Source: Botryllus schlosseri (Eukaryota). Taken from it: a stretch of DNA of 64,000 nucleotides. Location: positions 39,186,001 through 39,250,000 of the forward strand of contig CM119372.1 of NCBI GenBank assembly GCA_051294905.1. The letters are read 5' to 3'. The notes below the pieces were generated by a model. It searched no databases, was not told the origin of the DNA, and worked only from the letters and a program-made list of their open reading frames with translations. A program made the position numbers and the translations under genes. Below are positions 1-49,330 of this stretch, one piece after another (positions within the stretch are counted from its first letter, which is position 1; each line of letters starts with the position of its first letter).

Positions 1-35
1 TGTGTCGTTACCCCGTACCGAATATTGGTGTGTTG

Positions 36-3234: not shown

Positions 3235-4326
3235 TAGGGTTGCCATATTTTTGTGAAGCCAATTCCGGACATTCTTTAGCGCCCACTAGCGGATTTTAAA
3301 ATGAGGTGTAACACATTGACCGTCAATATGACGTCACACTAGCAAAGCATTGCCCATCGACTGTATACATTATACAGGAATGAAGTGGAACATAGGTCAT
3401 GAATTGGGTCATCTGTAATGTGAGCTCTGGTGATTGCTACTTGCTAGGGTTTGCAATAGATTCCTCCACGGGCCGGATGAAACCATCTGGCGGGCCGTGT
3501 CTGGCCTGTCAGGATTGTGTTTGACAGCCCTGCTATACAGTTAGGTCGGTGCGGCTATCTGATTACGTGTTTTAATCAGGTCCGAAACAACATTTTTTCT
3601 CCCCCCTTCCGCAAAAAAGCACTGATCTTGGGCCAACCATAGCGTAGTCGATGTAACTTGTTGGACACTTACTATATGCATTTGGCTGTTAAACTTTATG
3701 TATGGATTCTGTCAATTATATTGATTCTTCAATATGCTAGGCTACTATAAAATGCACCAGCAGGCTGCACATCCGGTGATTTGCAGTCTATTATGATCGC
3801 GACCTCATTTCCCACTTGAAAATGTTCCGTGGCAAAGCTCAAAAGTTGATTACTAAAAAAATTCGGCCTAGGAAGCTGATTACGTCCAACATCATCGTGA
3901 TCTCCAGATAAAGGCGGACGACCCCAAGATTTGGAACCACTGTCTGTGATTGAAGCATCCAATCGGCCTTAACCAACTCTAGGAATATACCGTTAGCTTA
4001 TAATTGCGATTACAATTAGACTTATTTCAGTAAATGATGGTTATTTATATTTATTTTGATTGCATTTTTTGACGAGGGTGGTGACTGGAGCCCATACTAA
4101 TATCATTATACGTTGCATCTCGCGCGCGGCGCGAAGAGCAATTTTGAATGGCATAAATCTGCTTGAAAATAGTATTGTTTATGTTGATTTACGAAAAACT
4201 TTTGAGCCTGCTTCAAGCCTTCAAAATTCCGGACATTTAGGCATATTTTAGAAATTCCTCCCGGACGCAGATTTTTCAGTGAAATTCCGGACATGTCCGG
4301 GAAATTCCGGACGTATGGCAACCCTA
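3235..4326. mobile_element. Non-autonomous hAT-type element, TAGGGTTGCCATA family, copy 1
   Basis: TIR TAGGGTTGCCATA...TATGGCAACCCTA; perfect TSD CTATAGAT (3227-3234, 4327-4334); TCCGGA subterminal repeats; colinear second copy at 39071-40120. Confidence 0.95.
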
Positions 4327-7470: not shown

Positions 7471-7735
7471 CTTGCTTAGCCAATATTCATAATGTTTCGA
7501 CTACATTGGTCTATTCACACCGGTACCTTATTTTTGATTCCGTATTTACCTAATTGTAGCACGACCACTTCTAGACTTTTCACAAGACACCGCTTACGCG
7601 GATCACGTGACTAGGAGGAGCCCAGATAAACCTCCAACACCTAGGCAGGAATTCTGGAGTCGACCTCGGTCGGACTCGAACTCCCAATTCATTAGTGTTG
7701 CAGCAGTGAATCATATCACTATGCTATCTCGCTAC
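7471..7735 (-). mobile_element. tRNA-derived SINE, family 2
   Basis: Minus strand AGCGAGATAGCATAGTG... GAGTTCGAGTCC (B box); flanked by a perfect 15-bp direct repeat ACAGCAATATGTTTG (7456-7470, 7736-7750), consistent with a retroposition TSD. Confidence 0.8.
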
Positions 7736-9471
7736 ACAGCAATATGTTTGTATTAGTACGACATTGGCAATTTGGAAATTGAAATGAGTTTTCACGGTAG
7801 AATATTTCATCGAAGACGGCCGTGCTGTTTATGTGAGTTGTGAAATTTTAGCAGTTATGAAGCGAAACTGCCACGTGATTTCTGCAATCAAAAAAATACA
7901 AGTTGAGTTATCTACCATATAGCATTGAAGGTTTCGTGGACCCCCTGAAAATGCTTCGCGGACCCCGGTTGAAAACTAGTAGACTAAGGGTTGGTGAACA
8001 GCGCAAGGGTTCGTCAGCTTAAAAATAGTTCAGAACCTCGGTCCTGGGGTAGTGATTGGCAACCTGAAATTAGCTATAATTAGTTAACCGGATATGTTTA
8101 TAACAACTTTCGCTAGCCTTGTGCGTTGCATTTACCGATGATCTATATATAAGCATATAAGGACGTCGATGAATAGCTTTTATCCGCTTGAAATAGACCC
8201 GAGTGTGATGTTTGGTCTACTGCTGAACAAATAGGTCGCAACCGAAACGGGTGTTTACTCTACACACCGCACACGCTTCATTCACAGCACAGCAAATTTT
8301 CCTGTCGTCTGGGTGGGTATATTGCCTGATAGTATGTGGGTTTCCACACGATCATCACCATATTAGCGCATATAATACAGGCAGATGTCAATGAAGCCTG
8401 TTAGGTTATTTTATGCATGCTTGATATCTTCATGAACTCAACATTATGCCACTGGTAACTTTGGTACTTTCCTATCTATGTACGCGGTCAGAAACGGCAT
8501 GAACTGTGTGTGCTTTTCGACATTCTACAGGGGATTGTGTCCATACCAGCGTTTCTGAAATGGATATGGTCTCATTAAACATCCCATTTCGCATCTGTGG
8601 GGTTTGAAGCCAAATTACCTTGAAACCTTGTACTGAACCAAGGTTTGTTTTTGATGTTGCTTTATGCACCAATCTTATGAATCGAATGATCACGAAAACA
8701 ATATAGGCTATCGCCTGTATTTAGGTCAACTAGTCAGTGTGTACATTTATTGAGACCAAAATATTTTACCGTAAAATAACGTCACAGATGCCATGTTATA
8801 TAACAATCGGATGTATCGACCGAACCACAAAAACTAAATTTGGGGGAGGACAAATAGTCTTTAACTCTATATCTCTAGGATGCTATATGTATGATTTTCA
8901 AAGACTATGTAGTTTTCAAATTATGTGCATGTCCTGGCGTAAACCGTCGTCATGAGGGGTTATTCCTGGGTATGCGTATGCATCTTGCAATTTTTGAATG
9001 ATTTAAATTTTAAAGAATCACGGATGTATACAGGATTAAAAGCTATGTTTCTAGGAAGAGGTATAATCGCTATCATGTTCCACTCTTATTATAGAAGTAA
9101 ATTTTGTCAAACTTGAATATGTGGCTATATCGATGAGTCAACGAATACAGGTTTACTTTTAGCCTACGGTTTTTACTGGTATAGCTGTCTCACTACATTG
9201 TATATCTATTTTGATGGGGTACTGAAAATAAATACTATACTATATAGTACCTGGTGTCTCATAGCCAATTCAATAGCTAACCCTGATTGGGTTTCACACC
9301 CATGGACGCACTAGCAACGAATTATACGGTACAGTCATGTCGAAGAATCTACTGAGAGAAAAACCAACAGAGAAGCGGAGTAGGACTACGTCAATCTAAA
9401 AGTCCGCGGGGAATTCCTACGCATATTGTTGCAGGGGAAACTAAACCATCGGCGTATGAACTGTCTCTCTC

Positions 9472-9479
9472 TATATATA
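9472..9479 (+). promoter_or_regulatory. Candidate TATA box of the Cys-rich secreted protein gene
   Basis: TATATATA ~100 bp upstream of the predicted ATG at 9574; supported by position only. Confidence 0.3.
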
Positions 9480-9573
9480 GGCTACCTCAATGTACACTCT
9501 TCATTCAATCAGCCACTGAATTGATCACTTAAAATTCAATCGTGAAGATATAAAGTAAGCAGGAGCTTCGATA

Positions 9574-12500
9574 ATGCTGAGTTGCTGTGTAGTATTGGTC
9601 GCTTTTACAGGTAATATATCATCCAGTTTCATCACACTACCGAAGCAATAGGAATAGATTCAGTGTGGTTAGTGAATGAAACAATTACAGAGCCCTATTG
9701 ATCGGTGTATTATCATCGTTAATAGACAAGTGGTCAACCATTGGGATTTTATGAAGCGTTAAGGTTTATACTTTTCGCTTCATTGCCCGTTACTCACCTG
9801 TGAGCAAATATCGTATGTAACAGCGGCACATAATATTCAGTTGGTCTGTGTGAGATTCTTTTGATAATCATCGGTATTGACTCTATTCGTTCTATTCAGC
9901 CTTTGCCGCGTCTCAAGATCTGAAGTGTATAGGGCGAGATTTATGTACCGACACTGTATCCGGAAAAAGCTCCACGTGCGCGAAATGGGGTTACGCGTGT
10001 TGTGTGGTACGGGGTGAAATCCTTCAGCTATCGAAGGCCCCAAGAGGAACGATGTGCTGCCATGGTACGTGAAATTAAAATTACAAGGAACAGCTAGAAT
10101 CTTGCGTCATATTCATATTATATTTTGTGGTCGAAGAGATAAATATGACTTTTATGTGATATAGGTTTAGTATCAACTTCTTTAAATCGTCACCATTATT
10201 TTACCCATTGGTTTATACATGTTTTATATCAGTGTTTCCTAAAGTACGGGTCGCGAAGGTACCAAATTTGTGTCTCGTATACGTACCAAAATGATCATTA
10301 CACGAACGTAATATTTGGAGAATTTCTGATCTTAGTAAGGGCTCATATTGTGTTTTAATGCGCGGTTTATTACAATGATTGATAAGCGCCAGTTACTATG
10401 ATGGAAAGGGTCGTGATATTGACACCTAATTGAAAGTTGAGACTGGGAAAGGTTGGAAATTATTCATGTATGCATACGCAAATGACACAATACAACAGAG
10501 TTGAATACTACGATAAACCTTAACCGCACTATCACATTGCATTAATGACTTTATTGTATAATACATTATGTTTCATAGAAATGTGTTGAGTGCTACGACT
10601 GGTTGTTTGCACGTTATCTGTATCATAGGCACAAAAAATCGTTGCACGCTAACACTAAAATGTATCACTTTCGATGTGTGAGGTTTCTTGGGTCGCTAGA
10701 CATTGATAAAACTTACCTGACAAAATTTGGTTCACGATATAAAACGGTTGATAACCATTGTCTTATTGTAAAGGTGTCGGACTCTACAACATGCAAACTC
10801 ATCTATGCCGAGAACACACAGTCGTCCAAAGACCAGGCGTGCGACATTGTCCGTCAAGCCAAATTTTATACAACCCTTCTACGCAAACATGCTGTCAGGC
10901 TACCAGAGACAGTCAACCGACAGTTCATCTGACTGAGCCTAACGGCTTATGCTGCGGATCGGATTACGTCAGTGCCTCATCAAAAGGGTGTTGCGACGGG
11001 AAGCCTTACGACAAAAGTACGGAATGTTGTGAAAGTTCGAGGGTGATGCCGAAGGAAGTCTGCAAATTAATCCGTAACGAAAGAGGTATATGTCCCATAT
11101 TCTTGAGCTAGCCGATAGAATACTGTACTTAGGAAAACACCGTTAAATACTGCCGGTAAAGTAGGCTACGTGTGCTTGCGTGGGTATTTAATAGTTTAGG
11201 TTCTACGCTATATTGTGAATTTCTCCCGACCTATTGTACTTGGGTAGGTTTTCCCCTTCGACAAACACCTTTTCCTATTGTCGGTATACGAGCGTGTAGT
11301 CGCACAGTTGGATATAGGCTACTGGTCAGTGGTAACTAGTTCATGACTTGAGATTATCAATGGAGCGTTATGTACGTTATACGCAACTCATCAAACCTGG
11401 ACAACGAGAAAATTTTAAGCTTTTCAAAATTAAAGTTGCAGTAGAGTTATAGCTATACATATTGTTCGAAATTAAATTAGAATTAGAATTACCGAATTCG
11501 CGAAAACTCGGACATTGAATCAATTTCCGTTAATGTCAAATTGATAATTCATAGCCTACTAATGAGTATGAGAACAGCAAATGTCTGAACATTGGGCTTG
11601 ACTCGCTTCGCACTATATAGCTCTCCTGTAGCATATACAGCGAAATCAGATATTAGATTAGAATTAATATTAAAACATAAAAACATTGTGAAAACTGGAT
11701 CGAACTTGAACTTCGCTCTAATTAAGTCTAATTGGAAAATTACAATTGTTTAGGTGTTTATGTGTGACCCAGGCCACCAAGTATGATCAAAATTGGTGGT
11801 GTGGAAGATTAGTATTGATAAAGGTAGACTCGAGCCACATTTAAGCCTCCGTATAGATTTGTACATGATAACCACCGTCATCAACAAATGCTTCCCATGT
11901 CTTATTGTATACAACTATTTTAAAGATATGTATACGACCAATTGGTTGTAGCATATCGTCTTTACCGGCACGATGAAGCACAATATTTGCTTTTGTCAAC
12001 CTATTCCTCGTCGGCAACCGCCGTTCAGTTGTGTACCCACCAGTAAAGATTCATTTGATTTGCAGACAACGGTATAACTTGCGCCGGTCCCTCTATATGC
12101 AAAGACGAGCACACCGGCGAAAAGTTTCAATGCATAGAAACAGATTTCGAATGCTGCAGATTCTCGGACGGGAGTGTTCAGCTCGTCAATGCGCCGAGAG
12201 GGACAAGCTGCTGCCAAGGTATGATATCATCGTGACACTGTCCTCATAAGCACAATACAGAAATGAGTGGAATCGGTATTCTGATATGTAAATCTGGTCG
12301 GAGATATGGCTTTAAATTCCAGTACAAATTCAAACCTTGAGTTATGTCGTATCATGGTAATGTCAGTTATCAAGCATGATTATTAGCACACCCAATATAC
12401 TTCCACTTGAACATTATTTCAGCAAAACTACATCCTTTTACCACTTTGAATTCGAGACGTAAAAAGTAGGTACCCTCCACCAAATCTACTTTTAGAAGCT

Positions 12501-14234
12501 ACATAATGAACAACTTTAAAGACCATCCATTTTCTACTTTCCCTGGAAATAGTTTTAACATGTCTTGAAAATCGCTACTTCTACTCGTAATGAAGTATAA
12601 ATTTACGACGTTGCTCTAACTTGAGTAGAAATGCGGCCCAATACTTTGAACACCGCGGAGTAAACCACTACTGTAATTCCATGTTAAAATCCTAATCACG
12701 GTTACCAATATCGTAGTGCACTTCTGAATCGATGCTCATCACTGGTATATGTATACTATCACTCATACCGGCTTTATTCGTGAAACGTCTCAATGAAGAA
12801 ATTTGTCTTGGAATCTTCAATGTAATTATTGCAATATCTTCATCTCTACAGGAGCCGGTATGTACAATCATCAAACCCACGTTTGCTCCCGTGGGTCAGT
12901 CATCAAGAGGCCGGACACTTCACTCTGCTTCAACAGCGCCCTTTTCTACAACATAAATACGCAAGTATGCTGTTACGCTACTGACAACACGCCTGTCGTC
13001 CACATGAAAAACCCCGACAAGTCCTGCTGCGGGGCTCACTACATACGCGACTCGACCCAAGGCTGCTGTAACGGCTCCCCGTATGACAAAAGCACACAAT
13101 GCTGCAAACGCAAGGATGTTTTTCCGAAGCACGTGTGCGACAATAATTACACGACTTGCCCGCCAAAAAGTAAGTGATTGACTATCAATTTTCAGTGGGC
13201 CGAATTTATAACAATAACAAATTCTCTAACAGATTGCACCCTCGATGAGAACGAATTTACCGCGGATTCGAATCTAAAGGGAGCCTTATATGGTGAGTAA
13301 AATAAGTAGTTGTAATGAGAAACCTGTATATGTACTTCAAGATACTTTTGGAGTTTCATAACTCCATTATACAATTGAATAATATTTTCTTATTAATATA
13401 AACCCGAATATTTCCGACTGACACTCGTCAGGGGTAATCGTAAGCAGCTAGCAGATAATTGAAAAGAACATTGTATACCAACAACGGTATCGCCGAATAT
13501 GTAGGCTACCGTAATACAGGAGCTATGATAGGAATCACAATATCGTTGTCACACTCTTATAATCCCTTAATAGAGTCTGAATCGTAATAAGTGTGACACA
13601 GCAAAATGCCTCACAGTATAGAACGACGCAAACTAATACTCCGTCGCTTAAATTGTTTTTTTTGCAAATGGTAAATTCTATATATATTTTGGTGTATCAG
13701 TTGTAATCACAATTTCATCTCCTGCGTCTACTATAGTTGTTCTAGTATTCTGACTTTTTGTCATGTATCATCATATTCGCTATTGAATGTCCTCTTACTC
13801 GTAACAACTATACACAAATTAGTAATGGAGCGTTGAAACAATTCAACTTTACCTTATATGGGAAGCTGGTCCGATTAACTAAATACACACTATAACGTGC
13901 TTCGCTAACTGGAATGCGTTTTCACTATTCAGTTTACTCATTTCAAGCGGGGGAAAGCGTCAATTTCAAACACGACTACGCATTTTTCACTGTCACGGAC
14001 GTAAAGCAACTGAAGGGTATCGCCAAAGGAAAAGTAACGTCAACCGAAAATGCCAGGGTAAAGAGGTTGGGACTATGGAAATGTGGATGCTCCGCTGATT
14101 TAGAGGATGGCAGACGTTACATTTTATTCACGAAGTCTCGATTGAGATCGAGCTCTTCGCGATTGCGTGAAGGTAAATTCCACATCAGCACTGTGGAAAA
14201 CTCGGCGGCACTCTTGCAACTGTTCAATTTGTGA
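9574..14234 (+). CDS. Secreted galaxin-like di-cysteine-repeat protein with C-terminal NTR/C345C-like module (~423 aa, 6 exons)
   Basis: Exons 9574-9610, 9900-10064, 10774-11085, 12066-12218, 12852-13169, 13948-14234. All introns are GT-AG and phase 1; the joined 1272 nt are open. Signal peptide MLSCCVVLVAFTAFAASQD; repeated YNxxTQxCC, CCG, GCCxGxPYDKSTxCC motifs; exon2~exon4 and exon3~exon5; last exon has DYAF...WKCGCSADLEDGRRYILF. Confidence 0.85.
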
Positions 14235-16498
14235 TTGTCCACTCGCAAGACAAGCAAGCGATTCGCGACGTGTTCGAACGTCCAAAGAGGATGATTGCGA
14301 ACTGGAGTTAGTTGGTGGCGCACCATTCACGCAAGCGTGATCGAACGGGCTATCACTTCACGAAGAAACATAGCCAGTCAATGCAGTAAAATGTTTGTTT
14401 TTTTTCACGGTAAATCGCAATCTTATACAAAACATGGATCATTTTTAAAGTTAATTAAGCCACATTCTGCCATAGCTGCCAGTGATTACACGTTTTGACG
14501 TCTACCGCTAATATTTACTTATGATTTCAAATAAGTAGCTAAACCCAAGTTTTATCTGCACTGTTATTTTATACATCCAATTGAATAGTGACACTGCGTT
14601 TCTGTGAAGACAACAACACCGCCCCAGCAATAGCGTACGACAATATTTATTTTTTATAGTAATTTATATAAGGCAATTTTTTTTACGAATTTTTTGTTTA
14701 CTTCATATGCATATATATGTAGGCCTACATGTAACGATCACTGTGTGACGTAAAACAGCGCAATATTTGCCATTCCTAAAGCTATTTCAACAATCTATAC
14801 TGTACTTAGGTTATATCACGATTTTGCACGCAATTCTTTCTCACGACATTTTTGTACCCTCCATCATAACTCTTCTTGCCTATTCCCAGTATTTTTCTAT
14901 GACATTCCAATGGATGTTGCGCCAATCATTTTCAGATAAGCTGAAATATATCTGTCCCTGCAATCTTTTCATGTGAATAATAGAAATCATCGCATTGGTA
15001 ACGAAGTTTTAAGAGACTCTCCTTTCAATATAAATTGATGACAAAGCAAAATTACCTGCTGCTTAATAGTTGCGGAAGATATATTTATGATGTTTTGTTG
15101 CGTTTCTCGCTTATTTCGTTTATACATTTTCAGGTTAAATACGCATCATACATCACGGCTATGCAGTGAATAATGATCGATGTATTTTGAAGCTTCTAGA
15201 TCACAACGTGTTAATTGATATTCATATGCATAATTTTAGATAGATATAAATATATATATTGGAAAGTGTCTGCATAACGTACTGTCAATTGAATGGTTCG
15301 GGCATGAAGCAAGCTGGTTATTTATTGAGAAGCTCAATGCAGGTTCGGTGCTAGGCTTTGTCGATTCTCATTTGTTAAAGGTGATGTATCTATCTATGAT
15401 TTGAGTGGGCATGTGCTTCGATAGTGCTATACATTGGTAATTATAATACCGCGTAAAACTGGTTTGAATTAAGATTAGCGGTTTGGGTTAGGATTGACGC
15501 CAGGATTCGTTTTGGGCTTGTAAAGTCACATTCGTAAGTGTCGCAACCGCGAGAAGCATATCGTTAGTCAGGTCAGTCCAGTACAGATTTGTAGTTGATC
15601 AATTTCTAATCAGCATGCAAGATTATGAGGTAATGCAATACGCACTAAAATAATTCGGGACTTGAGTAGTTGGTGGGACTATCATATATTATTGATATGC
15701 AAGCTACACAATACACATTCACGGATTTCGCCTGTCGCGATAAAATACGGGGAATATAACGGTAGATGGTGACTTGTTCAGCAATCGAAAGGAACTTGAG
15801 GCATAGAATCACTCCGATTCTTCACAGTGCGGTATTCAATTTATGTCATGTAAACACGAACTAATCGCTCTGGGATGTTGTAAAACAATGGGAGTCGCAT
15901 CATAACTTCCTGGCGGTACATTTCGTCGGGAAATACAACGGTAGCGTTAACGTCTTGAGCCTAAACGTCAATTTGTTCAAGAGTTGTGAGAAAGTAACTA
16001 GTAGAAGAAAATGATATATTGGAAGTGCAGTGGTCCCAAAGTGATTTTTGTGGGAACACGGGTTAAATATGGTTGGTAGAGTACCATTAGTCTCTGTGAA
16101 AACCAAAACTACGAAATACCAGTCTGGATACACGACAAAACGGCACCCACTCTCAACACGTTCATCTCTGACGCACGATATACAAAGCTACACCCAATAC
16201 ATTGAGTGTCTTTGATAGAATTATCAACACCTCATTTGGAAAACAACAGGAAGTACTAGCATCAACTATACCGCCAATATATCGCGTATTTGGTTGTATT
16301 CAAGTAAAATACCCGATGCAGTTTGGAACGTCATTACATTTGGTGCAACAATTTCGATTACGTTTCAGTTTTACTAGTACAATGACACGATTCTTCCTAC
16401 GTAGATGCCCTGTAGAACACTAAACACATATGCGGCGAATTTCGAATACGAATCCAATGCATATAATCTCCAATAACAGAATCATGGGTACCACAAGG

Positions 16499-17454
16499 CA
16501 GTGTTGGGATCAAGTCACTACCTTCGAGTCACGAGTCATCTCGAGTCATTGCATATTTTGATTCGAGTCAAGTCAAGTCAATCGATTTTCGATGGTGACT
16601 CGAATCAATTCAAGTCACTCGTTTTTTGGAGATGACTCAAGTCAAGTCGATTTAAGTCAAGTCAAGTCACGAGTGAAGTCACGGTTCAAATATAATTGAA
16701 TTTTCGAAGTATGAGTGATGATGCAAAGACATTACATTTAGGTGACAGGGCGGAAGACAGATTAAATGGCTATATATTTTGAATCAAATAACGAATATAA
16801 AGTTGAATATATATGCAAAAAGGCGCTGTATCGATCACGCACATTTAGAGCTGTTAATAAAATGTATGAGTAACTGCATACAGCTACATGCTACAGTCTG
16901 TTATTATCAACCATAACAGAGGACCGAATACGAAGCCTCGAGAAGTTGAAATAAAATAATATGGTACAGCACACTACCCATCTACACATCCGCAAGAATA
17001 TATTAACGCATAAACTATGTTCGTTCGATTTACATTATACAAGAGAGTTGGTAAAGGTGGGGACTTCGTAATGTAAGCACTAAGCCGTCTAAGAAATAAA
17101 GATAGGTTTCTATTGGATTAATCTTCTACTACGACATCGTATGCTGTGATAGTTTCGTTTGCGGTCAATTTACAATCGGTGAATGACTGGTTGCCCTCAC
17201 AAGTGACATTGGCGTATCGCAAACAACCCGAACATACACAAGATACAGTGATTTAATCGACACCGTTTACTTGATGACAAGAAATTGACTCGTAAATTTT
17301 GCTTCGCGTCACGAGTCAATTGACATTTTTGACGCGCCGAGTCAAGTCAAGTCATTTTTGCAAAGTGATTCAAGTTAAGTCAAGTCAAGTCATACGAAAA
17401 AGATGACCCGAGTCTGACTTGAGTCAAGTCTTGACTCGAGTCATCCCAACACTG
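16499..17454. mobile_element. hAT-type MITE family A, inverted relative to 36-973
   Basis: TIR CAGTGTTGGGAT...ATCCCAACACTG; perfect TSD CCACAAGG (16491-16498, 17455-17462); interior is a diverged reverse complement of 36-973. Confidence 0.93.
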
Positions 17455-20400
17455 CCACAAGGCAACATGACAGGATCACTCATTATTAGCCAACGACGGC
17501 CAATTCGCGGCACCTTGTACCGAGTCGGCACCTTGTACCGAGCCGGCAACTGCGAGCGTAAACCCAAGGTCAGTTGCTTGTTGTCTCAGAGTAGCCGGTT
17601 TCAAATCGCAAGGCCAGTGCAAACCGAGCAAGTTACGCAAATATTAATAAAATTAAGTAGATCGGATTCGTGTTTGACGTTCGTCCTACATGTTTACTAC
17701 GGGATGTATAATATAGCACCAATAGCCCGCATCTCGCGCTGTGCATTTGTAGGTACGTGTTCCCGTTGGTTATTAGGAAAAGTGAAAAGTAGCTTGTTGC
17801 TGTTTTCGTATTCATGGTGTTTTGACCTTAGTTGCCATTCAAAACCAGGCCTCTCTGTTCTTTAAAGTGGTTCCTAACACATTTTTAGGCGACTCATTCA
17901 AAACAATATTTCAGAACGGTAAGATATTGCGACCCATACAAACACATCTGGTATTTTAACGATCAAGTTGTCACGCAATTTTGAGGCAGAATGATTTCGA
18001 ACAATGCACAATGTTTCAACTTGAATACAAGCCATAGGGTATATTATTTGAGGTTTAGTGATGTCTTCAAGTTTTCAACTATATTTATTGTTATTTTTGT
18101 GGATTCGGATACAATATGCCTGAGAAGAAGAGACACAAATAATAAATCTGGCTACCTATAAGCTTGAGTCGTGATACATCCGTTGAGATATACTGCTTTA
18201 GAGTGAATTCTGATCCACCGGCTTGAACGAACCCTTTTGATCTGGGTCAAGACGGATCAGAGGGCAAGATGGAGCCTGGCAGAACCTCCATCACGAGTTC
18301 AGGAGTTGACACGGACGGTAACAGATTGGCGTTGCAGTTGTAGAACGTTCTATTGGGCTATATCGATATTGGAATGTTGTTTTTTCATATACAACTATTA
18401 CCGCTACTATTTACTTATCTAAAGAGCACTCATCGTGTCATTCGGATCGATGTGAATTGTGAACTTTTTCGATAACGACATCGGTTGCGAGGCTCATTAT
18501 AGGGGATTTTACAGTGCGTCTCACGCTATGAATACTGACTGTTGCCGGTGGATAGTGTACAGCTTCAACAGAAATCTAGAATATTAAGTCGCGATAATAT
18601 TAGGATGTTACTGACTGCCAGCATATTCCAACACTATACCAGTGATTCAAATACTTCTTCAACTTATGGCATGCCAGAGAAAATATAAAACGCTCGCGGC
18701 ACATTCTACAAAAGAAAACATTTTTTCACTTGTCAATGAGAGGGACCTGCCCGCGTCTCTTTATTCGAACACACAAGACAGAAGTGAAGTTGCATTGTGG
18801 ACAAACATACCCGTATTTTGTCGACAATTCCAAGTTAATTGCTGTCAAAACATAATATTCACAAAACCACGACGACGAGATTGATGATTTAATTTTGCTG
18901 CATTTTCATAGATCAAGCAATAGGATGTGAAAAAAGGCAATTAAAACTCATTCAGCTTTTTTTTATGGAAAACTTTTTTTTTAAATCAAATGCAGAATTT
19001 AATTATTTATACAGTTCTCTTCCAAAATTCCCCAACAAATTAGGCGACACATCTGAGAACCTGCGGCTATACACACTTGTGTGCATCGGAACACAGTTTG
19101 GGAATAAGTGAACATTGACGCTCAGCCAAGCGCATCAAAATGAATTACAATTCACTGGCAAGTTAATAGTTGATCGTTAGATTGAGACACTGGATAGGAG
19201 AGGTGGTAGGAAACGAAACATATCTACTTTTTCGAACCACTCAAGCACTTTTGATCAAGTACTCAAGTAATATCGATTTGTTGTCATATCAATTCAACTT
19301 CCGATAAACCGCTTTTTAGTCTAACCTGATTATTTCATATATACTGATTTTTTCAAGTATGAAAACTAGTCTGGAAATATGTGTGCATTCGTGTTGTGTC
19401 TGAATGTCATGCCAGCTGTATCCCGCTAACTGAATCCATGCATTTGTAGCGCCATGTGTCATTTCAGCTTGTGCTGACGATGCACCTTGCTACTCCGGAT
19501 ATCCACCTCCAATTATATCAGCTGAAGGTATATGTCCTCTCGAACAAATCTACTTTTCCAAACTACCTACTTGGGGACTTAACAGACCTTCCAGACGTTC
19601 ACTGCCTAGTTCCACTTGAAGTCGTTGTGACATGCTTCGGAAAAAAATAATTCTAATCGTAGTATGTAGGAATTCCCGATGTTACTCCTACGTGAGTACA
19701 AGCCCTAACTATACTTCTATAACATTGGCTGGGTAGTGGACATACTTCTATTTCTGCTATCTCGAAGAATGCAATTCGATTTCGGAATACATGCAGATTT
19801 TCACGTCGTTATTCACGACATTTGGAAGTAGATGGGATTAACAGACGAGCAAAGTCATTGAAATGGATAAGGTATTAATCCACCAATACAAGGAATAAAT
19901 CGTATCTAATCTAACCGTTAAGTTTAAAGCAGTGATTCCCAACCGCGGCCCTGTATTTATAAAATACACTAGCTTGGCTTGGAGTATGCAGTTTTTAATT
20001 AGGATTGCAGGAAAGTCGTGAGTAGACTGCTATCGTTACGCCCCTGCTGTTTCAATGCGATGTGCCATAACTTTCCAGTTGAACGTGCAGTAGCTATAGA
20101 TATAGGTAAAGACAGGACCATAACTGCCGTACGCCAAACCCCTAATGGGGGGGGGGGGGGGGGCGAGCTTCAACGGGGCTCAAAATAATTCCTTGAATTA
20201 GCCTGAATTATAGAGTATTTTTTGAAAATTTATGCATCTTTTTCAATTTTTTTGCTCTAGGCGTGATTTCATGCTGTTACATATTTTGATTTTTAGGTAC
20301 TCATCCCCGAGAAAAAATGCGCAAGATTTATAGCAATGGACATTGGGCATATCTGCGTTGAATATTACCGCGCCACGACGCATCAAGACATATTAAGTTT

Positions 20401-21898: not shown

Positions 21899-24268
21899 CT
21901 ATAACTGATAACAACAAGATGCTGATACGATTGGCTTGGCGACAGTTAATCGCTTAAAACCGGCACTATATTGATGCGTGAAGTAAGACGTTGCTTTACA
22001 AACCCGCTGGCACCATCCACACTTTCTGGTTGAGTTTTTGCCGCCAGATGACACAAGGTAAATAAGAAAGGTGATTTTAGCTGAATTTAACCATTCACAC
22101 AGTGTGGTCATGTTGAAGTTATGTCTTTAGCGAACCAGTGGTTGTAATACATAATTCAATACAATATTAATTGATTTCATGGTTGGTTAGAAGATTATGG
22201 TTGTATTTGCCGTAACTGGCAAGGTTTTTTGTGCAAGAGTAGCATTTATTGGGATTGTAAGATATTTATAATCATCACTTTCCTGCAAAATCATATTATG
22301 TCTTACTCTTTTTCTATACTATCTTCTTTACTTTCATTCAGTGTGCATGCCTCCTCTTTACATCGCCTAGGCCAAGGTGGGTGTCAGATTCCATAGACTA
22401 CTCCTTGTCGCTTCGACATCTTCCTGTCTTTTCATTGTATCGCATTTTTGTGGTGTATTGAACTGATAAAATTGCTAATAAACCAATGATGATGATGATG
22501 ATGATACTCAGGTATCGGTGAGCGGCTGAGATTTCTAGCAACATTTTGATGCCGTATTTACGGTCGCATAGCGTCATCTGGCGGAGTCAGCCTGCAACGT
22601 TCATGAAATTTTAGAAATTATGGTAAAGATTTCATAGAAAGCCGATCTGTACCGAAAATATGTCTTGACGGATCGTATTTAATTACATATTTGGTGAGAT
22701 CAGGAAATTATCTTTGTAAAAAAGCAATGCGACGGGCTCGAGTCTCGTGAAGAGAATTGTTCGCTTATTTTATAACAGTTGTTCTTAACTTGCTCCTTTG
22801 GGATTTCAATTAGGCAGAAAAGCTGCTTTTAAGTAGGTCTTTTCATTACAAAACTAGAGAAAACTGGGAGGGTGATTAATGGAAGAGAATCGATGATGAG
22901 ATAAAATGAATATATTTCCGAACTTGTTGCCCCATAAGGCACATAGTGGCATACAAAATTGCTATTAACAGCCTACTGTTGTGTAGTTATAGTTATATGG
23001 TAATAATAATATTGGATATTAAAGTCATGATATGGTGCTGCTTATAATGACGAAGGTCTTAAGCATCACCAATTAATTAATTACATCGAAATATTCTAAA
23101 TATATCCTGCTCACTATACTCATAAATTAGTATGTTAGCTCTATAGAAGCCTAGGAGGAGGATCTCACCAGTTGCTTGTATTTCCGCTCTGTGAATCAGT
23201 TACAGTGCAATTCATACATGGTGTATTTGTAGTGATTTTAGCTACTCCAAAGAGCAAAAAATTGAATACAATTGAACCGTAGAACCCTTCGTGCATACCA
23301 TTTAAATAGCACCAATGTACCATTAGTGCTATGTATATACCAGATTTTGATTACCACTGTTTTATTTATTAGACTACGGAAATATATCTGAAAGGATTTT
23401 TTTGGCAATCGGATGTTATTTTCCGCAATGGCCCGCTGGCAATAAACATTCTCCACGTCTTAGATGATTGGAAGTTTCATTTCATTTCCTGTAAGGTTGC
23501 GCGTTTGATTTGTAATGACTTATGTAGGCCTACTCTTCATTTCAAAAAAAGGCGTTCGGTTTACTTGATAATTTTGTAAGCTCATTTGTGGCGTACGCGT
23601 CAGTATGATCATGGCTAGATAGAAACTCTGACTGGTCCCTGTTCGTCAAGAGACTATAATGTTCGCATATTGGTTCAAATCTTTTCAAGTTCGCATTATC
23701 TATTGATCAAGTTTGGTGATCATTTGCATGTATTTTGTGATCGATTCAATCCCGTATCACGTCGTGATCGCTTCCAAACGGTTTCAGGTGACTCAAGTGG
23801 AACATCTGTTAGCGATAGAGTATGATGTATGATATTCGTCAAATTCAATCTTCAGCAGCTAAAATCGATATTATAGAGAAAACTAAATTTCAACTCTATC
23901 ATGTCCTTGCCTTCACAGGTACCTATAGTTTTACTAATTGAGGCATTTGAGGACTTCGGTGACGCGGTTGTTGTAGCATATCAGCGTTGGAGTAGTAAAC
24001 ATGCTACTCCTTTCTACCCCTGTGTTTATCGAAAACTTCTCATTTTAGTTTTCTATTTTTTGGGTTATGAACGTGTCAAAATGTGTGGCGAAACAGTTAT
24101 TCGAGATTTGGCCATGCTTTATGTGAGAGTAGCCCTGTAAATGGTTGGTAGGATACCCTCGGCAAGAACATTCAGAATTACTTGGTATATTTTATAGCAG
24201 GGTTGGGCAAACTTTTTAGCTCGCGGGCCGCATTCAACATTTGAATTGATTCGTGGGCCGCCCTTTAG

Positions 24269-24630
24269 CAGTGTTTGGATCAAGTCGCTACCTTCGAGTC
24301 ACGAGTCATCTCGAGTCATTGCACATTTTGACTCTAGTCAAGTCAAGTCAATCGATTTTCGAAGAAGACTCGAGTCAACTAAAGTCACTGATTTTTTAGA
24401 GACGACTCGAGTCAAGTCAAGTCATAATTCAAGTCAAATTGATTTTTCGAAGTATTAGTGACGATTCAAAGTCATTACATTTTGCTAGCTGTGGCTGTGT
24501 GAAAGATAGAATAATTGGCCATATATCTTGAATAAAATACCTAATATAAAGTTAAATATGCCTGTAAGGAGGGGTTGTATCGCTCAGGCACACGTAGAAC
24601 TGCAAATAAAATACATGAGTTACTGTACAG
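24269..24630. mobile_element. Truncated family-A MITE (one end only)
   Basis: CAGTGTTTGGATCAAGTCGCTACCTTCGAGTCACGAG colinear with 16499 onward; similarity stops at the next element. Confidence 0.8.
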
Positions 24631-26713
24631 CAGCGGTTCTTAACCTTGCCTCCAGCGCTGGCGATTTTGAAGGGGGCGCTAACGCTCAGTGGGGCGCTGG
24701 GATCAGGGGGCGATATGGGGGCGCTAAAGAAAATATCTTCGCATTAGATGATGCGGTAGTATGGCATGTCCTTAATGAGTATTCAGAGCAAATTAACATT
24801 CCACAGAACATGTCAAATCCCGAAATTTTTGGTCGCGCTTATCGCGACGATTTTTGCTACATATTCTATGTTTTCATAAATGTAGTGGGTTATTATAATT
24901 CATGTAAAACGAATTGCGCGTACTGTTAGATCGCCAATTTCCCGTTGAGACACTGCCGTCACGCTCGCTAGGGTTATTTTCAACAAATTGTTTCGAATTA
25001 GGTATTAAATGCTGCAGCGTGTGAAAATCGAAGAAGGAGGCACTGCATATCACTTTTGAGAGTGAAAGCCCCCTCGTACATAAAATAAGTTTTGAAGCTT
25101 GGTGCACGTAATGAATAACTAAACATACTTTTATTTGAGAGCTATAAAATTAAATCGTTAGAATATTTCTTCGTCGTATCATATCGCTATAATATATAAT
25201 ATGAGCTGCTTTGTTTTGAATACGTTTATGTTAAAATGATTAACTGGGTACAGTACTAAATTCAATGTCAGCAGAAATATGCATCCCATTCTCAGTTGAC
25301 TTACTTGTAGTTACACAAAGCACTAAGACAAAATCCAATACCAATAATTTTCCCGTAGTGCCAATCGCAGATGTGAATTAGGGATGGTTAGAACCACAGG
25401 GTATGAGACCGTGCCCGATTGTTGTTATAACAACCTTGATTTGACCCTGATTATACCACACGCAATTATTATATGGTTTATTGTAGTCAAATGGTTCTCG
25501 CGCGCGATTAACGCGCGAAATATTTCCAATACCAAAGTCCCGATAAGACCGACTTAGCAAACCCTTGATGGGCGATTTTGAGTCCCATGACTCATAAGTG
25601 CCCTATTACGGGCGCTTGTGCCAATAGTACCTTGGTGCAACCCCAAGGGGCTGTCACAAGCGTCAACGGGGGGAGGTTTACTGCGGTTCCTCCGGGTTAC
25701 CCCTAAAAAAAATAAGAAGACCGACTTAGACCTCTTGCCATGATCGAAACTGCTGCAACCCTAACCCCCAATCGGTGAGCTCGAAGGGTGCCCCAAATTA
25801 TTTCGGTGAATGAACATAAATTGCACATCATGTTTTGACGACTCCCCCACTGAAGAATACGCATAAATATAGAAAATAGAAATAGGCATTTCAGCGTCGG
25901 CCATTGCCAGGCTACGATGTACGAAGACATATGTAGTTCCGGTCAATATGGGACTCCGAGAAGTGCGTCAAAAATATCGTCAGCGAGAAAATCTTAGCCT
26001 AAGAGGATTGCCCGTATATTGACAGTAAACGTCGATGAATATACGTCTAATTGTTCATAGGTGCTTGAATCGCTGGTGCCGAATTATCTTGTCGTCGCAA
26101 TCTGCACTCCACAGGACAAATAACATCCATCAGAGAAAATTATTTGCCAGTGAAGAAATACCAATTTTCAATCGTGTACTTACTTTAGAATAATACGTTT
26201 ATGCGTTTCAATATGTTTTGACTATATAGCGGACAAGAGGTAACAAAATAACAACATGTAACGAATTAATTGTACAAACGGGTATGCCCGAATATGATCA
26301 ATTATAAATTACGTGGCTTTCATTTTCCGATACAACAGCTCACTCAGCGCTACTGATCAATCTGATTACGTGGGCTGAGAGTATAAAACGTTTATAGCGA
26401 CATACATATACAATTACCACCTATTCATTCATGCATTATAAAAAAAATTGGCGCCTAGGGCGACCAGGTCACGCAAATTTTGCTGACCATCGAAATCACG
26501 CGACGGGGTTCTTAGGGCGAAGCCCTCAGAAGCTTGATTTATCACGCAATGGGTGCACAAGACAATCGTTTTTAGGGGGGCTGACGAAGTGCTGTTACGG
26601 CCCTTTCTCTTACCCATTGTCTATATTACAGTCCTTACAATATGACGTGGGGGGCGCTGGAGCACGATAATTTTTGAAAGGGGCGCTGGAGGAAAAAAGG
26701 TCAAGAACCACTG
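24631..26713. mobile_element. hAT-type non-autonomous element with GGGGCGCT subterminal repeats, containing other repeat fragments
   Basis: TIR CAGCGGTTCTTAACC...GGTCAAGAACCACTG; GGGGCGCT repeats at both ends; no clean TSD; 25770-25960(-) resembles 36200-36440(+). Confidence 0.65.
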
Positions 26714-27499
26714 CCCTATATTGTAACGCCCGTAGTTTAGTCGAAATGCAATACGGAGAAGTTGTATACGATACGGTGTAAACATTTTGCGCGATTAGTA
26801 AACGTTATAGAATTGAATAGTATATTCATATTGAAATACCTCGAATATTTTCGGCTGACATTCGTCAGGGGTAATCGTCTGAAACTAGTAAATAATTGGA
26901 AAGAACATTGTATATCAACCATCGCATCGAGATTGTGGATCGGAAGAATGCTATATTGTGTAGCTTTATTTCCGGAAATTAAAGGCATTACGGCCATAGC
27001 CAAATTTCATGGCCGGCTGCAATATACCAAGTTAGTATCGATGATAAGTACTGTATATGGCCCAATCGTGGTCAAATGCATGATCAATTATGTTCTGTTA
27101 TGGGCGTACAGTAAATAGACTAGGTGAGAGCGAGAGTTTAGCTCAGTTTATATGCATTTTCACCGGAAATACCAGAAGAATAGCGATACAATGAAACGAT
27201 AGGAAGAAGATGAAACGATCTGGAATAGTCTCTATATATCAATTAAAAACACAAAAATGATGTGAAGAATGCAATAAAAAGTAGGATATCCGGTAAATGA
27301 AACAGGAAATATAATGGTATAGAAAGTTAGAAGCGATGAAGACATTATCAAAACTGGTAACGGGTATGTGTTGATTTGTATCTTTTTTTATATAGAAATA
27401 GACCTAAATATTCGGCTGACGCTCGTCACAGCTAATCGTATGCAACTGCATAGAATAGGAAAAAACAATGTATACCAGATATCTGTTATAAAATCTCTA

Positions 27500-28540: not shown

Positions 28541-31070
28541 TTCCAACAGTATAGGATATGTAGTTGTAAACAATTCCATAGTTTGTTATCTTCGGTATAA
28601 CTGAATAGCTGTGAATTGGATAATGCCAGGCTGATACAATCCTTCCTTTTCTGTATCAGGTGATGAGTCCGCGATATACGGTTATACATATTTGATTATC
28701 GTACTGCTATACAAAACATACGACGCTCGAGATCCTCAACATCAATGGAGCTTGCACTCATTTGCACGATGAGAATTGTGTCGATGAATCTATGAATATT
28801 TCTATGTTGTAGCAGCAAGTGAACTTGACACACTGCAGATGTGCTGCAAATGTAGAATAGATGCAACGATGTAGCCTAACCTACCAGTAATATTGGTAAA
28901 ATGTGGGGCTTTGTTCCCAGAAATTTGATTTTGGTCACGTTTCCGATCCTATATAATTTGTATGTAGGCTATATCCACCTAGGTGCCGTTCTTCCAGGTT
29001 GAAACAAATAATCTACGAATGAGATGCATGTCGCAGTCACTAACGATGCCGTGTATGCCAGAGGATACTTGATTACTTGGCTGCAAGGATCGTTTTGTAT
29101 CGCATGTCGTTGTCAGATCAAGCTGCTAACCGATGTGGTGGGCATTGGACGTTAATGTGCCTGCTAGGCCTATATAATTAAATTACTGTTATAATAATAG
29201 ATAACTCCAGATACTTTGCGTCATCTAATGCAGCACCATCGATCGATGCGACATCAAATGCAGCGCCATCGATCGACGAAAAAATGCCCATGTCAAGCCT
29301 ACGAATTGACCAATAGGCATGATATATTTGTGGCTGATGCAGGGAACAATGTGCCAATGTGATTTCGCTAGCCTTCCTAGCCGACATGATATCACCAGCC
29401 GACTCAAACCCGACGTGCGCTAGCCGACTCGAATCCCTTGCTCACCTGTATTTGAAATGTCTTCTCGACGACGACGACAACTATCGGTGGAAGATATTGC
29501 CAGGTCGACCAATTTCCCTGGTGCCCCGAGGATGCCGCCACCAGTGGTACATTTCTGGTCTCATTCGCCAGAGTCGTGGTTTGTTTCGATCGAAGCAGGA
29601 TTTTCAAGTTATGGAGTTACGGACTCTGCGTCGAAGTATTTTCATGTTCTGGGATGTTTGGACGGCAACCAGCTCGAACCGATTCGTTTAAAGTTACCTG
29701 GCCCAGAAGACGACGACTGCTACGAAGTATTGCGTGATCTTCTGATGCGTGAGTACGCTATTCCAATACGAGACCGTGTTAAGGAGCTTTATAGTGATCG
29801 CTGTAGAGATTTAAAACCCTCTGAACTCTGAAAAAATCACGAAATGCAATGAGGGCTTATCAAACACCAAGTTCTGACCGTTATTTCAAAGAAACGTTCC
29901 TTCGTCATTTGCCAGATCATATTGCTGGGATATTGTCGCCACATGTAGACGATACCGTGGAACAGTTTGTCCTACGAGCTGATAGTATATAGCCTACACC
30001 CGCGCTTCTCCTCGTGAGGTTTCAAATCATAGATGAATTACAACGAACTGTTCAATCGATAGCTCGAGAGGTCAGGGAATTGAAGGCGATACCTTCGGCA
30101 CGACTTTTACCTGCATCGGGCGGACACAGCTCGCACAATTTCAATCGTAGTTCCGTTCCTCGCCATGAACCCTAAAGAGGTGACCGACCAGATTTTCGGA
30201 CGCTGTCAAACCGTTCTGAGACACGTGGTGAGGTAACTCGATTTGCTCATCGGTGTGGTACCAATCACTTGTGCTTTTATCATGACAAATTCGGTGATCG
30301 AGCTCGAAATTGCCGTCCACCATGTTCCTGCTCTTCAAATCGCCCTTTTTTAGACGGAGGCCTCGTGAGGGATCGCAACAATTTTCAACAGTGAACTCCG
30401 AATGTCAAAACCCTTTTATTGCATGTGCGAGATTCGATTTCAGGGCAGATTTTCCTCGTCGATACAGGAGCAATGGAGCATCCGTTTCTGTATTGCCGAC
30501 TTCGAGTAACGTTTTCGAAAGTAAACCAGGACTAAGCCTATACGCTACAGATCAATCAAAAATTGTGACGTTTGGAACGAGATATTTAAGGATCGAGTTC
30601 TCCGAAAGACACAAGTATGGAATATGGATTTCGATTCTATGTTCCTGATACACACATTGTCATATTGGGGGCTGATTTGATTAAGCGATTTTCCCTCGTC
30701 GTTGATTTGAGGACCAATCGTCTGATTGATACTGTTTCAGGAGGTTTCATTCCTGGCTGGAAGTGTAATCCAGTAGTTCGCGGGTTGAACTGTATAGCGC
30801 CTGATCACAATAGGCCAGTGGTTCCCAACCTTTTTCCACCCACGTACCACTTCGAGGTTTTACGCAGTGCTCGCGTACCACCTACATAAGTTACGCGCGC
30901 CGAAGGCGGTCAAAAATGTTTCCACCGTGTTGAGCTGCGGAAGGCAGCGAAACAGAAAATAAACTGCCCAATTTAAGGCGCAGTATATGATTTCTGTAGT
31001 GATTCCATGATGACTTCTTGTGGTCAACCATATTAAAACGGAATTTGGTTAGATAAGATTCCCAATGCCC

Positions 31071-32146
31071 AGACGTGATTGTGTAATAGTGATACGTCCG
31101 GCTTCTTGATCGGTAGGTCGTGGATTCGATCCCCGGCCGGGTCAGACCAAAGACTCGAAAACTGGTATCCGCCGCTATCCTGCTAGGCGCTCGGCATCCA
31201 TGGATAGCATAGAGGAGAAAAAACGGGCGTGTAGACTAGATGACCTTACGATCGTATCGCATCTCCGTCGTCAAAAACATCTCGATCAGGGGTGGCCAAC
31301 CTTTTGGCTATTCACGGCCGCATTTCGATTACTCATGTGGCCTACGGCCGCATTCCGGAGTATATTCATTATGAACTAGCTGGACGCCCAATACCCATGT
31401 TAAATTTTCCATGTCCATTTCCTACGAACTCCGGACTAATCTATGCATTGATATGGCCCTACCATACGCACCGAAATAGCGAGTTGTGATGTCATGGTAA
31501 CGGACATGATCGCGCGAAGCTCGAAAACCTTTTTTCAGGATAATGAATCAACTTTGTCAATATTATCAGTAGTTTCACATATTACTATCAAACATTTATC
31601 CTTTCTAGTCCCATATGATTAGATTCACCGGTAGAGTTGATGGAGGGGGTACTGGACAAGTTATATATGATGATTTGATGATGCATATTTGGGTGGGCCA
31701 ACTGTTATTAGTCAATTTGCTGCATGCTGGAATTTCTTGACCTCTCATCAGGATTGTAGGTAGTGGAAAGATTTGAATCGCCCAGAGGTGCCAGAAACAG
31801 ATTTCTTTCGTGAGGAGCACACGATTTCGAGTTGGTATTTCCATATGGGGCACATCACGTTCCTGTTGTTCGCACCTGTTTTATGGGGCGCAAATTGCAA
31901 AGGGCGCTTCTATACTAACACTGAAAAATTGAATCGCGCATAGCGCGAAGAAAATCTCAAAATCAATTAAAATCTCTCAAAAATTCAGGAGTTAAATTGT
32001 AAATTCAATTTTCGTGTCGACGGCCGCCAACACATCCTAATTGAATTGTGTGGCCACGGCCGCACAAATTTCCTTCTACGGCCGCAGTTTGGTCACCCCT
32101 GATTTCGATGGTGCAGGCGGACACGAATACCTCCTTTTCTCTCTCT
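31071..32146 (+). mobile_element. SINE family 1 copy, interrupted by a MITE
   Basis: GTCCGGCTTCTTGATCGGTAGGTCGTGGATTCGATCCC matches 6971-7233(-); resumes after 32101 with ...GGTGCAGG..GAATAC..(TC)n. Confidence 0.85.
31287..32101. mobile_element. hAT-type MITE (CGGCCGCA family) nested in the SINE
   Basis: TIR CAGGGGTGGCCAA...TTGGTCACCCCTG; TSD ATCTCGAT/ATTTCGAT; inverted homologue at 37877-38639. Confidence 0.9.
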
Positions 32147-32291
32147 TCACTCGATGCTTTCAAATCTACCCCACTTGAACTGATAACTCCCTTCGGTCGA
32201 TAAACAAAAAATCTACTCGCGTACCACCTGGAAGACCTTCGCGTACCACTAGTGGTACGCGTACCACAGGTTGCGAACCACTGCAATAGGC

Positions 32292-32851
32292 CATATGTAG
32301 ATCTTTTGTCGAGCTTCAATGACATTAACGTTCCACGGAATGCAGCAGTACGAGCTAATCACGGTACTGTACATCGTATTATTACTAACGGATGTCCCAC
32401 TTGTTCTCGCTGTCGCCCATTGCCGCCACATTTGAAACAGAAGGTGAAGAATCGATTGCAAGAGATGTTGAAGTCCGGTGTAATCATTCGCTTAAAATCG
32501 CCTTTCGCCTCTCCTATTACTGTCGTACCAAAGCGGTTAGACAATATTAGAATCTGTGTCGACTATAGGAAATTAAACAATCAAACGGTCAAGGATCGCT
32601 GGCCTGTCCCATTTTTGCGTGATTTTACCAATGAACTGTCGAACTGTAATGTTTTTAGCAAAGTTGACTTAGCGAAGGCGTACCATCAAATTCCTCTTCA
32701 TCCGGACGATCAAGAGAAGGCTGCTTTTATTTGTCCTGAAGGACTATTCCAACCAACGACGATGATGTTTGGCTTGACCAACGCTTGTAGTACTTTTAGC
32801 CGTTTTATATCCGAAGTAACCGAAGGACTGGACAATATTTTGTGGTTTTAG
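32292..32851 (+). pseudogene. Gypsy reverse transcriptase segment
   Basis: RT motifs in ORF 32252-32851; catalytic YxDD degenerate and frameshifted (..LDYILII) at ~32850. Confidence 0.9.
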
Positions 32852-33058
32852 ACTACATTTTAATTATTGCGACTCGAACTGATGAAGAGCACATGGCAAT
32901 ATTAAAGGAATTGTTCTCAAGGTTTCGTAAGTTCGGACTGGTCATAAATGACGATAAGTGCAGTTTCGGTAAAGAAGAAATCGAATTTTTAGGTCACCAT
33001 TAGTCCCTTATCATCAAAAGTTGAAGAGTAATCTCTAACTATCCTCGTCCCGAAAAAT

Positions 33059-49285: not shown

Positions 49286-49330
49286 TTCCTTGCTATCATC
49301 TACTGACAATCTTCTCACATCACTGCCAAT

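Follow-up and report, generated by a model that had tools for sequence, protein, structure and literature searches.

Galaxin-like repeats joined to a probable netrin-like domain in a predicted secreted protein of Botryllus schlosseri

Does the DNA between positions 9574 and 14234 of a 64,000-nucleotide stretch of the Botryllus schlosseri genome (contig CM119372.1, positions 39,186,001 to 39,250,000; hereafter the window) hold an undescribed host system? A sequence-only reading had made this suggestion on noticing a hidden gene for a secreted, galaxin-like protein built from a duplicated two-exon module. We find that the gene is real, transcribed and spliced, and that its product represents a new domain combination of known galaxin-like proteins, in which galaxin repeats are followed by a probable netrin-like (NTR-like) domain. 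To call it an undescribed host system was an overstatement: the locus is one gene, the window holds no partner gene and (by tblastn and with three profiles) no paralogue, and the same architecture is already in RefSeq, in unnamed or uncharacterized proteins.

A transcribed gene of seven exons

The gene lies on the plus strand and runs as an open frame from an ATG at 9574 to a TGA at 14234, across seven exons whose splice sites were read from the sequence (Table 1). All six introns are GT-AG and phase 1, the five internal exons are each divisible by three, and the joined product has 448 amino acids (aa), 42 of them cysteines. GT-AG splicing into an open frame had been predicted correctly; the count of six exons and about 423 aa had not, having missed the exon at 13233-13292, without which the six-exon join yields 428 aa.

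Transcription was checked by comparing four sequencing runs (X1, X2, X15 and X19) with positions 7500-16500; X1 and X2 were taken as RNA by guess, and X15 and X19 were read to 6% and 13%, respectively. One X1 contig of 2,381 nucleotides (nt), spanning 9522-15210, omits exactly the six predicted introns, and intron 3 is also spliced in an X2 contig, while other X2 contigs cover introns. The joint from 13169 to 13233 is carried by six raw RNA reads with two different starts in X15, whose first mates lie on the minus strand, which corresponds to plus-strand RNA in most stranded libraries. The junction-read check that had been proposed for this gene came out in its favour for this one intron in raw reads and for all six in the X1 contig, and no joint that skips exon 6, as a six-exon isoform would, is among those listed for the four runs. 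Exon coverage in the portion of X19 that was read is zero, which is not evidence of silence.

The start codon is fixed by an in-frame stop 18 nt upstream of it, inside the transcribed leader, and a TATA-like run lies near 9470-9480. The sole hydrophobic stretch of the protein is its N-terminal 17 residues, with a short n-region lacking a basic residue, and hydropathy finds no later membrane segment, which would fit the secretion proposed earlier. Downstream, neither AATAAA nor ATTAAA occurs between 14235 and 16500. The X1 contig departs from the window at no fewer than 12 coding positions, in exons 3, 5 and 7; 7 of the 12 listed differences alter a residue, and none falls on a cysteine.

A separate X2 contig (12984-13232) reads through the 63-nt intron 5 (13170-13232), which holds an in-frame stop; retention of this intron, if real, would give a product without the NTR-like tail. 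Pre-mRNA or DNA is the simpler reading of this contig, because X2 has further contigs that cover introns.

Two copies of an A+B block with galaxin repeats

Exons 2 and 4 each encode a short cysteine-rich module (module A) and exons 3 and 5 a longer block (block B). The proposed paralogy of both pairs was borne out: the proteins of exons 2 and 4 are identical at 17 of 48 positions (35%, E 4e-11) and those of exons 3 and 5 at 47 of 96 (49%, E 1e-35). No full shuffle out of 2,000 reached either score, and with the cysteines held in place (again n = 2,000) the exon 2/4 score was reached once and the exon 3/5 score never; therefore, the likeness within each pair exceeds what cysteine spacing alone provides. 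At the DNA level the exon pairs barely rise above shuffles, from which introns 2 and 4 do not stand out, and this weak likeness of the copies indicates that the duplication is old. Whole blocks can be copied because the exons are phase-1 symmetric.

Block B carries the membership in the galaxin-like group that had been proposed, as exons 3 and 5 both score above the cut-off of 28 bits for Galaxin_repeat PF24748 (scores in Table 1). Additionally, there are 13 di-cysteine pairs, 12 of them in the mature chain, and they stand in tandem about 10-18 residues apart, as in galaxin-like proteins. Each A+B exon pair contains 18 cysteines and the C-terminal tail four; judged from the sequence, these even counts are consistent with all mature cysteines being paired. 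Exon 3 also shows a likeness to IGFL PF14653 (E 0.013, 16 bits), below that family's cut-off of 25.

Module A had been described as unlike any named domain. At the level of sequence matches this stands, as exons 2 and 4, like exon 7, gave no Pfam match at E up to 1, and a PDB sequence search with module A returned no match. However, module A reads best as a degenerate galaxin unit bearing a cap specific to the family, and not as a new domain. This reading rests on its cysteine spacing, on Pfam extensions and on Atlas look-alikes. The PF24748 match in a Styela clava homologue (P0005, residues 77-194) starts within module A, and the matches in Styela and Clavelina-type homologues likewise extend into it. 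The nearest Atlas look-alikes of module A are galaxin-repeat clusters, by features (0.86) and by structure (template-modelling score 0.47), both values lying below the tool's bar. The direct similarity of module A to block B is no better than that of shuffles, and a separate small domain is the less likely alternative. When a profile was made of the copies in the window, Styela and Clavelina, it matched 11 of 41 records, all of them training sequences or close cluster mates, and left unmatched the Ciona protein and every other galaxin-like protein among the 41; within these records, module A is confined to this family.

A C-terminal domain of probable netrin-like kind

The C-terminal 126 residues (323-448), on which the sequence-only reading was silent, constitute a separate conserved domain. 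They are homologous in the window protein, three Styela proteins and one Ciona protein (P0035). Leave-one-out profiles of the five tails scored 45.8 (window), 104.7, 112.2, 115.1 and 28.8 bits (Ciona), against 9.0-15.1 for the best of 1,000 shuffles (9.5 for the window tail and 9.0 for the Ciona tail). None of the other 30 of the 41 records carries the domain (best E 0.93).

From modelling, it is well supported that this tail is an OB barrel. An AlphaFold model of P0005, built on an 11-row alignment, has a β-barrel at residues 241-330 with a predicted local distance difference test score (pLDDT) of 65-87; a helix at 227-236 (pLDDT <50), strands across 243-329 and a helix at 332-339 together form an OB-type barrel with helices at both ends, the arrangement described for the NTR module in PMC3516229. 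Complement C3b fills the top three Foldseek places, in one case as the C-terminal domain by itself (E 0.02-0.03, probability 0.98-0.99), the matched portion of C3b being its C-terminal C345C domain, and TIMP-1 ranks sixth. Structural alignment returned a series of NTR-class proteins: C5 (Z 7.2-7.5, root-mean-square deviation (rmsd) 4.0, 106 residues aligned), TIMP-2 (Z 7.0, rmsd 3.5, 96 aligned), C4 (Z 6.8, rmsd 4.6, 114 aligned), the C3b C-terminal domain (Z 6.8, rmsd 3.3, 94 aligned), the PCOLCE1 NTR domain (Z 6.2, rmsd 3.7, 96 aligned) and agrin NtA (Z 5.8, rmsd 3.9, 90 aligned). Language-model features of exon 7 place it nearest to an NTR cluster (0.91, with 166 of 256 features shared), 84% of whose members carry PF01759, and to an agrin NtA cluster (0.88).

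We consider it likely that the barrel is of the NTR kind, because of its extracellular setting, cysteines, charge and position. All five tails are basic, as NTR domains tend to be, with an isoelectric point (pI) of 9.3 in the window protein and 9.5-10.1 in the four homologues, and with net charges of +6 and of +11 to +19, respectively. The window tail has cysteines at 325, 330, 399 and 401. The front pair and the CxC motif are kept in all five tails, and two Styela tails add a further pair; the textbook NTR module has six cysteines.

Several observations weigh against an NTR assignment for the window protein. The four homologous tails are all more basic than its own, and the fold was modelled on P0005, whose overall model has a mean pLDDT of 58 and a predicted template-modelling score of 0.35. 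No Foldseek match reached E 0.001 or better, and in structural alignment CTC1, with its DNA-binding OB fold, ranks first (Z 8.1-8.3, rmsd 4.0, 98 aligned), although its lead over the NTR matches is within about 1 Z, effectively a tie. Judged by title, NTR-class entries made up 9 of 50 rows in the non-redundant structural search, most others being nucleic-acid-binding OB folds, and 41 of 50 in the redundant one. Unnamed bacterial Atlas clusters tie with the NTR cluster for exon 7. Neither exon 7 nor the four homologous tails matched the Pfam NTR, TIMP or NtA families at E up to 1-10, and a PDB sequence search with the tail found no match. Ribosomal L37a rows in PDB (E 0.25-1.3) were taken as chance. 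A single-sequence fold of exon 7 (pLDDT 36) was not used.

For the A/B region the same P0005 model predicts short strands, with lower confidence in block B. The tail filled the result lists of the fold searches, which therefore barely probed this region, and we do not claim a new fold for it.

Homologues in other ascidians

An exon 3+5 profile searched against 1.84 billion representative proteins retrieved 28 at E <=0.001, 26 of which carry PF24748. Against the joined protein, three of these are far ahead of the rest (P0003, E 9e-55; P0005, 3e-41; P0002, 3e-38), at 29-32% identity and with alignments that span module A, block B and tail. They correspond to three Styela clava genes, all annotated as 'uncharacterized': LOC120335696 (XP_039259207), LOC120336657 (XP_039260320, which is P0005) and LOC120336093 (XP_039259629). 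A Clavelina protein (P0015) and Ciona proteins (P0028/P0035) are also among the 28, as is P0001, a 120-aa fragment with 47% identity. Records were consulted for 20 of the 28, and the second ten of these include eight with names, which belong to echinoderms, amphioxus, a mollusc, a brachiopod and a centipede. Word-index protein searches, which are insensitive, gave no match for exon 5, two for a Styela alignment and one for a Ciona/Clavelina alignment, and in metagenome contigs none of 61 pattern matches was confirmed.

The Styela trio shares with the window protein module A, block B with near-identical cysteine spacing and the basic C-terminal domain. The differences lie in block number and in the additional cysteine pair of two tails: two of the genes (P0002 and P0005) have one A+B block, whereas LOC120335696 (P0003) has one and a half (A, truncated B, A, B) and the window protein two. 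Ciona LOC100180141 (XP_002119290; UniProt fragment H2Y0T4, 'Galaxin-like repeats domain-containing') has a signal-like N-terminus, a galaxin block and a homologous basic tail, but compared with the window protein its galaxin repeats are more numerous and its module A is reduced, so much so that it escapes the module-A profile. Clavelina LOC143463377 has a full module A and block B as in the window, in a record without the tail. Thus, a full-length match to a characterized protein, which had been named as the finding that would remove novelty, did not emerge; what exists are whole-architecture homologues in Styela and Ciona, and these are uncharacterized.

In the window protein each block finds its best full-length match in the other (45%), and the same holds for LOC120335696 (57%), which suggests separate block duplications. 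In a tree of nine A+B blocks, none of six branches was starred. In P0005 the hydrophobic, signal-like stretch begins near residue 33, and the annotation may place the start about 27 residues too far upstream.

Discussion

The window protein shares with galaxins and galaxin-like proteins (PF24748, PANTHER PTHR34490; coral galaxin, sponge calcarins and squid EsGal) tandem di-cysteines 10-18 residues apart, predicted disulfide-linked hairpins and, judged from its signal-like N-terminus, probable secretion. It differs in that its A+B blocks make up only about 60% of the chain, as two long units, and in its globular C-terminal domain, which none of the eight named non-tunicate galaxin-like matches has. 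Coral galaxin consists mostly of repeats of about 30 aa with two di-cysteines each, and its mature form is acidic, at a pI of about 4.5 (PMC2726143). With two 150-aa blocks, a 126-aa globular tail and a pI of 8.4, the window protein falls outside galaxin in this strict coral sense.

With NTR and C345C proteins (netrin, sFRP, PCOLCE, WFIKKN, ADAMTSL5, complement C3/C4/C5, TIMP and agrin NtA), the tail shares a predicted basic extracellular OB barrel with flanking helices that stands C-terminal to a cysteine-rich module, two front cysteines and a CxC in its second half. In contrast to them, it lies below all sequence-profile thresholds, has four cysteines and is partnered with galaxin repeats. 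Usherin is a very large protein with laminin N-terminal, LamG, EGF-lam and FN3 domains. The window protein, at 448 aa, matches none of its Pfam families (laminin, LamG and FN3 are absent), and what the two have in common is a related texture of di-cysteine repeats (PMC2726143). The sub-threshold likeness of exon 3 likewise leaves the protein outside the IGFL family.

Ascidian galaxin-like proteins are known, with 16 entries in the PANTHER list of PMC12419799 (supplementary file 7), H2Y0T4 not being among them. The pairing of galaxin repeats with an NTR domain is absent from the families listed in section 13 of PMC3516229 and in the introduction of PMC2871463. Elsewhere in the literature searched, which leaves out most subscription papers, the two co-occur only in unrelated rows of a table. 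No paper found there deals with this family or mentions any of six homologue identifiers, although the genes may well be listed in some expression table outside that coverage.

The explanation we favour, tentatively and at somewhat short of even confidence, is that the protein serves as a matrix adaptor: a secreted, disulfide-stapled rod anchored by its basic NTR-like domain to sulfated glycans of the tunic, mucus or matrix. On the modelled structure, each A+B block would form a chain of short β-hairpins that its di-cysteines staple into a protease-resistant rod, in keeping with a published model in which galaxin di-cysteines join short β-hairpins into a chain (PMC12419799). The tail, modelled as a divergent NTR OB barrel, may by analogy bind polyanions such as the sulfated glycans of tunic, mucus or basement membrane; this would fix the rod where it is, and the rod would cross-link partners in the matrix or set the distance between them. 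Duplication of complete phase-1 exon pairs could tune the length of the rod. NTR domains occur outside the cell and are frequently binders of heparin-like glycans (PMC2871463), polysaccharides and proteoglycans accompany cellulose in the ascidian tunic (PMC10986139), and ancestral galaxins have been proposed to be structural matrix proteins (PMC2726143). A Ciona galaxin-like gene, which may or may not be a member of the NTR-bearing family, is expressed throughout the tailbud epidermis (PMC2726143). Expression looks low for a bulk structural protein, with an exon-bin depth of 0-1.3 in the 6% of X15 and none in the 13% of X19.

Such low expression would suit a regulator, and a signalling modulator comparable to sFRP, WFIKKN, PCPE or netrin is one of two unlikely but serious rivals. 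Here the tail would sit on sulfated glycans while the rod binds a growth factor, a receptor or a tolloid-type protease. The named multi-domain proteins with a C-terminal NTR domain in PMC3516229 and PMC2871463 all act in signalling, complement or protease modulation, and the weak IGFL likeness of exon 3 (E 0.013, 16 bits against 25) points the same way. However, Pfam finds no frizzled-CRD, laminin, CUB, WAP, Kazal or Kunitz domain, and the free variation in repeat number, together with low conservation among ascidians, favours a spacer or matrix protein over a fixed ligand interface. Less probable again is an ascidian-specific netrin-module signalling family, in which a galaxin- or IGFL-like cysteine-rich rod fused to an NTR domain would serve in the epidermis or tunic as a ligand, or a trap for ligands, that is tethered to glycans. 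Fusions of this kind have twice given rise to netrins and twice to sFRPs. Were this so, the family would have stayed hidden because its NTR domain drifted below every profile threshold. An improbable role of about the same standing as signalling modulation is epithelial immunity or the shaping of the microbiota, where cationic galaxin repeats, whole or cleaved, would by analogy act on bacteria and the basic tail would retain the protein on mucus or tunic surfaces. Among the roles put forward earlier, those in the extracellular matrix and in dealing with microbes still lead as guesses. Squid galaxins are epithelial and cationic, and peptides derived from their repeats inhibit bacteria, albeit in assays at 50-300 micromolar (PMC12773714). 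The window protein is basic overall, and its family evolves fast (the 29-32% identity to Styela) and has been multiplied on what is probably one Styela contig. Although 7 of the 12 listed coding differences in X1 (among at least 12) alter a residue, this is fewer than the roughly 9 of 12 expected without selection, and the second copy of module A is acidic (pI 4.5).

Two further roles are very improbable. A TIMP-like metalloprotease inhibitor, freed by cleavage of the tail, would account for the structural matches to the N-domains of TIMP-1, -2 and -3. In TIMPs, however, the NTR domain stands at the mature N-terminus and inhibition requires its free first cysteine, whereas the window domain is C-terminal with its first cysteine internal, at aa 325; moreover, the PCPE-1 NTR domain binds heparin and does not inhibit metalloproteases, even if cut at the corresponding cysteine (PMC2871463). 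A part in a biomineral matrix, as played by coral galaxin and sponge calcarin, is equally doubtful, although it was among the roles put forward earlier. The di-cysteine repeats are held in common, and galaxins and calcarins do occur in skeleton matrices (PMC4890752, PMC12419799), yet galaxin-like proteins are widespread in non-calcifiers (PMC12419799), and the window protein lacks an acidic domain, its aspartate plus glutamate content being 9.4% and its pI far from that of coral galaxin (PMC2726143). The family is also present in Ciona, which is not known to make a mineral skeleton. What probability remains falls to other roles, for instance in gamete coats.

On its own, the gene points to no new system or chemistry. 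With it, the short list of NTR-module proteins gains a probable new architecture, galaxin repeats with an NTR-like domain, and uncharacterized genes of Styela and Ciona gain a name and a testable handle. How the tunic forms is described as poorly known (PMC10986139), and the Ciona orthologue may be useful, as no function has been settled for the galaxin-like proteins of animals that do not calcify.

Gene features and surroundings in the window

Table 1. Parts of the galaxin-like gene, in window positions
Feature	Position	Strand	Evidence
5' untranslated leader	9522..9573 (at least from 9522)	+	Start of X1 contig
Exon 1, coding part: most of predicted signal peptide, aa 1-12	9574..9610	+	Intron 9611-9899 removed in X1 contig
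Exon 2: rest of predicted signal peptide, then first copy of module A with 7 Cys, spacing C-5-C-10-C-6-CC-17-CC	9900..10064	+	Spliced contig, paralogy
Exon 3: first copy of block B (galaxin repeats), 11 Cys	10774..11085	+	PF24748 33.5 bits; spliced in X1, intron 3 in X2 too
Exon 4: module A copy 2, 7 Cys	12066..12218	+	Spliced contig, paralogy
Exon 5: block B copy 2, 11 Cys, and first Cys of C-terminal domain	12852..13169	+	PF24748 32.7 bits
Exon 6, 60 nt: second Cys and predicted N-terminal helix region of C-terminal domain	13233..13292	+	X1 on both sides; X15 reads; homologue alignment
Exon 7, coding part: predicted β-barrel of NTR-like domain, CxC motif, stop codon	13933..14234	+	Spliced contig; fold via Styela homologue
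NTR-like (OB-fold) C-terminal domain (probable), aa 323-448, 4 Cys, pI 9.3	13151..14231, exons 5-7	+	Profiles, model
3' untranslated region, about 1 kb to end of X1 contig	14235..15210	+	

The neighbourhood of the gene consists of transposons and an unrelated receptor gene. The latter, a single frame of 367 codons at 55232-56335 (+), encodes a rhodopsin-family G-protein-coupled receptor (7tm_1, E 5e-24); a 78-nt stretch of this region is 74% like 63302-63379, within a palindromic region. At 48339-52513 (+) lies an element of the long interspersed nuclear element (LINE) type with an uninterrupted 1068-codon endonuclease/reverse transcriptase frame and two upstream frames (a coiled coil and a Baculo_FP_2nd-like domain). 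The remains of a long terminal repeat (LTR) retrotransposon occupy 29424-34972 (+), where a DUF7041 gag-like piece is followed by reverse transcriptase, RNase H and integrase in separate frames. Broken frames at 41688-42574 (-) resemble a Penelope-type reverse transcriptase by eye, the one frame tested giving no Pfam match at E 0.001. ARAGORN found no tRNA in the window.

Short high-copy repeats, with very deep and divergent coverage in all four runs, lie at 13367-13482 (intron 6), about 11460-11670 (intron 3) and about 7550-7980, and the intron-6 repeat recurs at 26805-26919. A dispersed family resembling miniature inverted-repeat transposable elements, rich in short TCAAG/GAGTC units and present in both orientations, is found at 16498-17459, 24268-24631, 31-973 and other places. 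Finally, the segments 3235-4326 and 39071-40120 form a 1.1-kb direct repeat pair with 88% identity.

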